Source: Escherichia phage S143_2. Taken from it: a DNA stretch of 64,000 nt. Within the stretch, counting starts at the first letter, position 1; each line of letters begins with the position of its first letter. The stretch lies in the sequence record MZ189261.1; one strand, given 5' to 3'. Under the pieces are notes generated by a model that was not told the origin of the DNA, did not search any database, and saw nothing but the letters and a program-made list of their open reading frames with translations. Both the position numbers and the translations under genes were made by a program. Of the stretch, positions 44,768 to 45,223 are shown piece by piece.

Positions 44768-45223
44768 TTATTTTAGATCTTCGGCCCAATCTAGTTTTAA
44801 GGGTTCTTTGTATTCACGGTCGAGAATAACCGGAATAGCTACATCACCACTGAATGATAGTTGGCCAACGTTATATGATAACGTTATATGTGGAGTGTAG
44901 TCGTCGAAATCATGAGTAGCACCTAAAGCTCGTGCATACTGATGACGACATCTAAGATATTCGGAATCAAGAACTAAAACCAGTACAGCGCCGTCGTCAG
45001 TTTTCCATACCTCAAAGTGTCCTGATTCGGCAATAGAATAACTACCACTAGACGTAGTATATGGTATGTTTACACGTGAATAACAAATTGTTGAATGAAG
45101 CTTTTCACGTGGTACTGGATTAGGAATTCTTAATTTACGCTGGAGGTCTTCCAGCGCATCAAGTGTTAATTCTGAAAACTTAGCTGCGACGTAGAGGCCT
45201 TGTGAAAAGTCCTCAAATTTCAT
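44768..45223 (-). CDS. 57B: 2H-phosphoesterase-like protein, probable 57B/Acb1 (anti-CBASS cyclic-oligonucleotide nuclease)
   Basis: 151 aa; two H-x-T/S motifs (HSTI, HITL) of 2H phosphoesterases; immediately upstream of 57A as T4 57B. Confidence 0.7.

Follow-up and report, generated by a model that had tools for sequence, protein, structure and literature searches.

Escherichia phage S143_2 carries a probable functional orthologue of T4 Acb1 (gp57B) beside two internal head protein genes

Introduction

The product of phage T4 gene 57B was found through activity-guided fractionation as an activity that degrades 3′3′-cGAMP, and it is now called Acb1 (Hobbs et al., 2022; Nature 605:522; PMC9117128). 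The 2022 report presented it as the first mechanism of CBASS evasion known in phages. The enzyme cleaves adenosine-containing 3′–5′ cyclic di- and trinucleotides to linear 3′-phosphate products without the help of a metal; cGG and cA4 are left uncleaved, and rings of more than three nucleotides cannot be accepted. T4 Acb1 and nine further homologues all cleaved 3′3′-cGAMP and cAAA. Cap5, Cap4 and CapV are no longer activated once the signal has been treated with Acb1. A T4 Δacb1 phage has been made and assayed on CBASS-bearing hosts, and T4 Acb1 was shown to protect the phage against CBASS in vivo (Hobbs et al., 2022). No RB69 or Mosigvirus orthologue is named among the homologues assayed in that study, and the term RB69 does not occur in its text.

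The active site of Acb1 is built from two HxT motifs, which supply the catalytic tetrad H44, T46, H113 and T115. Four aromatic residues (Y12, W74, F107 and W147) stack on the bases of the ligand, E141 reads the N6 position of adenine, and a C-terminal lid (residues 145-152) has been described for Acb1 of Erwinia phage FBB1. Replacement of both histidines (H44A/H113A) leaves T4 Acb1 catalytically dead (Hobbs et al., 2022). The FBB1 enzyme is available as an apo structure (7T26) and in complex with 3′3′-cGAMP (7T27).

Possession of Acb1 also exposes the phage. Later work found that Panoptes senses the depletion of decoy cyclic nucleotides and restricts T-even phages with an intact acb1, and that natural and selected acb1 mutants escape it. 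In T4, acb1 lies next to ipI, and this adjacency has already been noted as an anti-defence island (Hobbs et al., 2022). Here we describe the corresponding locus of Escherichia phage S143_2.

The acb1 locus of S143_2

The DNA analysed is a stretch of 64,000 nucleotides from sequence record MZ189261.1, referred to below as the window. By DNA similarity it falls in the genus Mosigvirus, with 97.8% identity to phage ST0 across 24 kb and, in a local segment of 2.3 kb, 96.9% identity to vB_VIPECOMC06, itself classified as Mosigvirus. The genes of the neighbourhood are as follows, in the order of transcription.

47757..48350, minus strand: gp4, head closure
46933..47754, minus strand: gp2, DNA end protector
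46246..46836, minus strand: gp3-like tail protein
45458..46192, minus strand: gene 1, dNMP kinase (Pfam DNMK, E = 3.7e-97), in the T4 order
45223..45453, minus strand: gene 57A, tail-fibre assembly chaperone (Pfam GP57, E = 5.9e-23; phrog_1002), immediately 5′ of acb1
44768..45223, minus strand: acb1, the gene 57B orthologue, 151 codons plus stop with an ATG start; by orthology, a predicted nuclease of the 2H-phosphoesterase fold that degrades cyclic oligonucleotides
44418..44690, minus strand: Ip9, internal head protein of 90 aa (phrog_7673, E = 9.2e-55), immediately 3′ of acb1
44049..44357, minus strand: Ip7, internal head protein of 102 aa (phrog_2667, E = 5.6e-41)
past the ip genes, minus strand: homologues of trna.4, trna.3 and trna.2 (phrog_1692, 1411 and 2023)
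42193-43024, minus strand: ten tRNA genes (Arg, Asn, Tyr, Met, Thr, Ser, Pro, Gly, Leu and Gln)

The order 4-2-3-1-57A-57B-ip-ip-trna.4/.3/.2-tRNAs, all on one strand, is the same as in T4, where acb1 occupies the same place between 57A and the ip locus in the same strand arrangement. The two phages differ in what follows acb1, which is ip9 and then ip7 in S143_2 and ipI in T4. An earlier reading of this DNA, made from the sequence only, had placed 57B directly upstream of 57A, as in T4. The adjacency is confirmed, but the direction is not: since all these genes lie on the minus strand, 57B is downstream of 57A, and "upstream" is true only in plus-strand coordinates. Gene 57B is likewise 3′ of 57A in the transcription of T4.

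The 57A stop codon and the acb1 start codon share one base (GAA TAATG), an arrangement compatible with translational coupling of the two genes; the T4 coordinates give an overlap of 4 nt. A scan for promoters and terminators across 43900-46400 gave no enrichment over shuffled sequence (10 sigma-70-like sites against 9.0 ± 2.9), so the timing of acb1 expression is taken from T4. The best sigma-70-like match lies at 44725-44753 on the minus strand, between the acb1 stop codon and ip9, and consists of TTTACA, a 17-nt spacer and TATAGT, with an extended -10 TG. The downstream end of this site, including the TATAGT hexamer, runs into a hairpin, GGACTA-N8-TAGTCC. An Rfam scan of 41000-46500 found the ten tRNAs only and no structured RNA in or beside acb1. 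The G+C content of acb1 is 39.9%, against 37.5% for the window.

Family assignment and active-site residues

The open reading frame at 44768-45223 almost certainly encodes a functional orthologue of T4 Acb1 (gp57B) in Mosigvirus, that is, in an RB69-like T-even coliphage. The protein matches the whole profile of the Pfam family Acb1 (PF23474, positions 1-144 of 144), scoring 196.8 bits where the gathering cut-off is 27 (E = 1.8e-58). Among PDB sequences, phmmer matched residues 9-148 to FBB1 Acb1 (7T26/7T27, E = 7.9e-59), and it also found the distant Acb1 entries 9Q2G and 9Q2Y (E about 0.01-0.05), whose two HxT motifs line up with those of the protein. These matches and the conserved tetrad bear out the proposal of the sequence-only reading that the gene encodes an Acb1-like 2H phosphoesterase. 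The alignment with T4 Acb1 which that reading had suggested as a check (NP_049750.1, from NC_000866) is gapless across 151 aa, with 85% identity and 92% positives, and contains the catalytic histidine pair.

Among 5.8 billion proteins searched, 86 homologues were found; 85 of these carry PF23474, and several bear the UniRef name "Anti-CBASS protein Acb1". An NCBIfam scan found no family for Acb1, Ip9 or Ip7. Identical copies of the protein are known from sequenced Mosigvirus coliphages, in LF82-1 and ECO26.1 3-1; proteins at least 99% identical occur in 118 phage records, and a homologue in 1,469. The orthologue of phage Mizar is already annotated as "anti-CBASS Acb1-like protein". The S143_2 gene is thus an already described gene in its usual place, present as an intact copy.

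The translation contains five histidines, exactly two of which fall within H-x-[ST] motifs. Both motifs had been pointed out in the sequence-only reading of the 151-aa protein, and they are located in the translation as H43-S-T45 and H112-I-T114. Such a count is weak evidence in itself, because 14% of shuffles of the protein's own amino acids contain at least two HxS/T motifs; the pair is meaningful because both members align to the catalytic HxT/HxT tetrad of Acb1. As S143_2 Acb1 is one residue shorter than T4 Acb1 at the N-terminus, T4 numbering equals S143_2 numbering plus one. The functional segments are located as follows.

45089..45097, minus strand: first catalytic motif, H43-S44-T45 (H44/T46 in T4), codons CAT TCA ACA
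44882..44890, minus strand: second catalytic motif, H112-I113-T114 (H113/T115 in T4), codons CAT ATA ACG
44771..44794, minus strand: C-terminal lid, residues 144-151 (145-152 in the published numbering), with the stacking residue W146; the lid is known from FBB1 Acb1

All nine residues reported for catalysis or ligand binding are kept (Y11, H43, T45, W73, F106, H112, T114, E140 and W146), with the adenine-reading E140 sitting just ahead of the lid. In an alignment of 21 homologues reaching down to 30% identity, Y11, H43, T45, H112, T114 and E140 are invariant. In an alignment of 42 sequences, Y11 and the four tetrad residues still show no variation, and at least 90% of the sequences retain E140 and W146. 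With none of the reported contact or catalytic residues altered, the same chemistry is expected of S143_2 Acb1, and its enzyme activity is presumed on the strength of this orthology.

The FBB1 enzyme shares the HxT/HxT tetrad at about 61-64% identity, but it has Phe at the position of W73 (Trp in S143_2 and T4), Tyr at that of F106, and one extra residue inserted behind residue 78.

At the DNA level, acb1 is 75% identical to the T4 gene. The Nei-Gojobori estimates (dN = 0.130, dS = 1.97, dN/dS = 0.066) indicate strong purifying selection on an intact acb1 reading frame. This low ratio is worth noting because some T-even phages, such as Bas43, carry a disrupted acb1, and Panoptes selects mutants of this kind.

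Predicted structure

An AlphaFold2 model of the acb1 product, built on the 42-sequence alignment, has a mean pLDDT of 88.6 and a pTM of 0.82. Confidence is low only at residues 1-5 and 146-151; in the latter segment pLDDT falls below 50, as would suit a flexible lid modelled without its ligand. As modelled, the protein would adopt a compact 2H phosphoesterase fold that has beta-strands at its centre and a flexible lid at the C-terminus.

The top Foldseek match in the PDB is 7T26 (E = 1.6e-19, TM 0.85/0.94, rmsd 0.9 Å, 64% identity), and 7T27 ranks second. The phosphodiesterase of Burkholderia phage BCSR5 (9Q2G, 9Q2Y) comes next, at E about 1e-8 and TM about 0.65-0.69. This distant Acb1 has the same family label in the PDB and HxT motifs that align; it is a longer chain of 165 aa, with 16-18% identity to S143_2 Acb1. 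E. coli LigT and other 2H enzymes reach only TM about 0.45-0.6 at 13-18% identity. LigT (5LDI) and PF13563 of the 2H superfamily share the fold class and two HxT/S motifs, whereas S143_2 Acb1 is the more compact protein (151 aa, compared with about 175 for LigT) and possesses the stacking residues and lid specific to Acb1.

Alternative readings of the protein

The name most often attached to this family points elsewhere. The product of 57B is called "RNA ligase" in the RefSeq record of T4 and in many phage records, and phrog_755 is described in the same words. A generic LigT-like 2H enzyme would act as a 2′-5′ RNA ligase, or as a 2′,3′-cyclic phosphodiesterase of RNA ends, with tRNA repair as one possible setting. 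Such a reading can draw on a weak Pfam match to 2_5_RNA_ligase2 (E = 0.012) and on E. coli LigT as a distant structural neighbour (Foldseek E about 1e-4). The Pfam match (PF13563), at 16.1 bits, falls short of its 27-bit cut-off and is confined to residues 69-131; in a search extended to E up to 10, this superfamily is the sole other match, partial and sub-threshold. The LigT superpositions (TM about 0.45-0.57, rmsd 7-9 Å, 13-16% identity) compare poorly with the TM of 0.85/0.94 and 0.9 Å obtained for Acb1. The base-stacking residues specific to Acb1 and the adenine-reading Glu are all kept, and the T4 orthologue was itself isolated by its cGAMP-cleaving activity. A LigT or RNA ligase identity is therefore rejected on the sub-threshold Pfam score and the poor structural similarity, and we hold it to be extremely improbable. 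The name looks like a label inherited at the level of the superfamily; it is still used for the Acb1 family by PHROG 755, RefSeq T4 and many GenBank phage records, and neither the present evidence nor the literature supports it.

A subtler possibility accepts the protein as an Acb1 but supposes that in Mosigvirus its substrate range or biological target has shifted from that of T4, either in its preference between cyclic di- and trinucleotides or by tuning that triggers Panoptes less. The protein differs from T4 Acb1 by 23 substitutions, several of which cluster in strand residues 56-70; Y62, S63, I64, E66 and F70 lie in the long strand that carries W73. Because this cluster sits beside a stacking residue, the quantitative substrate preference could differ from that of T4, and the selection that Panoptes exerts against broad-specificity Acb1 offers a plausible pressure. 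Yet none of the substitutions falls on a residue with a reported role in catalysis or ligand contact, most of them are conservative (92% positives), and the same activities were retained by nine other homologues and by the FBB1 enzyme, which is far more divergent (about 61-64% identity). We give such a shift very little probability. We likewise consider it highly unlikely that a Mosigvirus Acb1 with a shifted spectrum, for instance one that spares Panoptes decoys and still destroys CBASS signals, forms a lineage-specific anti-defence cassette together with Ip9 and Ip7. The preferred reading remains that of an Acb1 orthologue with the activity of the T4 enzyme.

Predicted role in infection

On the analogy of T4 and FBB1, Acb1 of S143_2 would capture 3′-5′-linked cyclic di- and trinucleotides with at least one adenosine (3′3′-cGAMP, cUA, cAAA, cAAG) in a U-shaped pocket during infection. 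There, Y11, W73, F106 and W146 would stack on the bases, E140 would read adenine N6, and the C-terminal lid would close over the ligand. The H43/T45 and H112/T114 tetrad would then promote a metal-independent attack of the adenosine 2′-OH on the 3′-5′ bond, with a 2′,3′-cyclic phosphate as the intermediate and a linear 3′-phosphate as the product. The second messenger would in this way be removed before the CBASS effectors Cap5, Cap4 and CapV become active, allowing the phage to escape abortive infection. Effectors that depend on cA3 should be blunted in the same way, cA3 also being destroyed by the enzyme. The expected cost is that the phage should become visible to Panoptes guard systems, which sense the loss of decoy cyclic nucleotides.

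The presence of acb1 thus predicts both infection of hosts whose CBASS uses adenosine-containing cyclic di- or trinucleotides and vulnerability to guard systems of the Panoptes type. The assignment is useful for genome annotation or host-range prediction; it adds nothing new to biology.

Internal head protein genes beside acb1

The two genes that follow acb1 had been taken in the sequence-only reading for duplicated IPI-like genes which, with acb1, form a local anti-defence island. They turn out to be distinct. The 90-aa protein is Ip9, with 93% identity to Ip9 of RB15 and 96% to Ip9 of RB32. The 102-aa protein is Ip7, with 91% identity to "internal head protein 7" of T2, and the equivalent gene of ATK47 is annotated "Ip7". 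In a pairwise BLASTP comparison, Ip9 and Ip7 have their first 11 residues alone in common (MKTYKEFINEA). This segment is taken as a capsid-targeting leader because it resembles the N-terminal packaging signal described for internal proteins of T-even phages. BLASTP against T4 IPI aligned N-terminal residues only, at E = 0.003 and 0.004 for the two genes; in Ip9 the match amounts to 11/26. Homology of both neighbours to T4 IPI, the GmrSD inhibitor, is rejected, as nothing aligns beyond the leader. The proposal of an island keeps part of its support, since acb1 does adjoin internal head protein genes, but those genes are not IPI. Our literature search found no reported target for Ip7 or Ip9.

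The slot beside acb1 is evidently variable, since the close relatives Mizar and ATK47 carry IPI in place of Ip9. Repeats flank the ip genes. In both ip genes, the ribosome-binding region and codons 1-11 lie within a perfect 39-nt direct repeat (44326-44364 and 44659-44697), and a 41-nt repeat with 83% identity and an internal palindrome lies just 3′ of each ip cassette (43997-44037 and 44377-44417). These elements look like the "43 bp direct repeat" of the ATK47 annotation, and could mediate the exchange of cassettes.

The body of Ip9 (residues 17-90, excluding the leader) has a 50%-identical homologue in phage JSSK01, whose 44.5-kb genome is too small to be T4-like, and weaker homologues in Salmonella phages of about 160 kb. 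This distribution suggests that the payload domain of Ip9 may also exist as a free-standing gene outside the T-even phages.

Other features of the region

The tRNA cluster of S143_2 is uninterrupted, and that of T4 contains the homing endonuclease segB. In the stretches compared from Mizar and vB_VIPECOMC06, the annotation 3′ of the trna.2 homologue shows an extra gene of 516 nt (phrog_2290), only one to three tRNA genes and a gene of the homing-endonuclease type. The tRNA region is clearly mosaic among Mosigvirus genomes.

A 208-aa open reading frame of a function-unknown family (40828-41454, minus strand; phrog_2280) begins with MYTFNEFLAETE, which resembles the capsid-targeting leader of the internal proteins, and has a central stretch rich in Pro, Lys and Ala (KPAPTTPKPATPKAVAKPEPKPEVKATPKAP). 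By these features it may encode another packaged internal protein.
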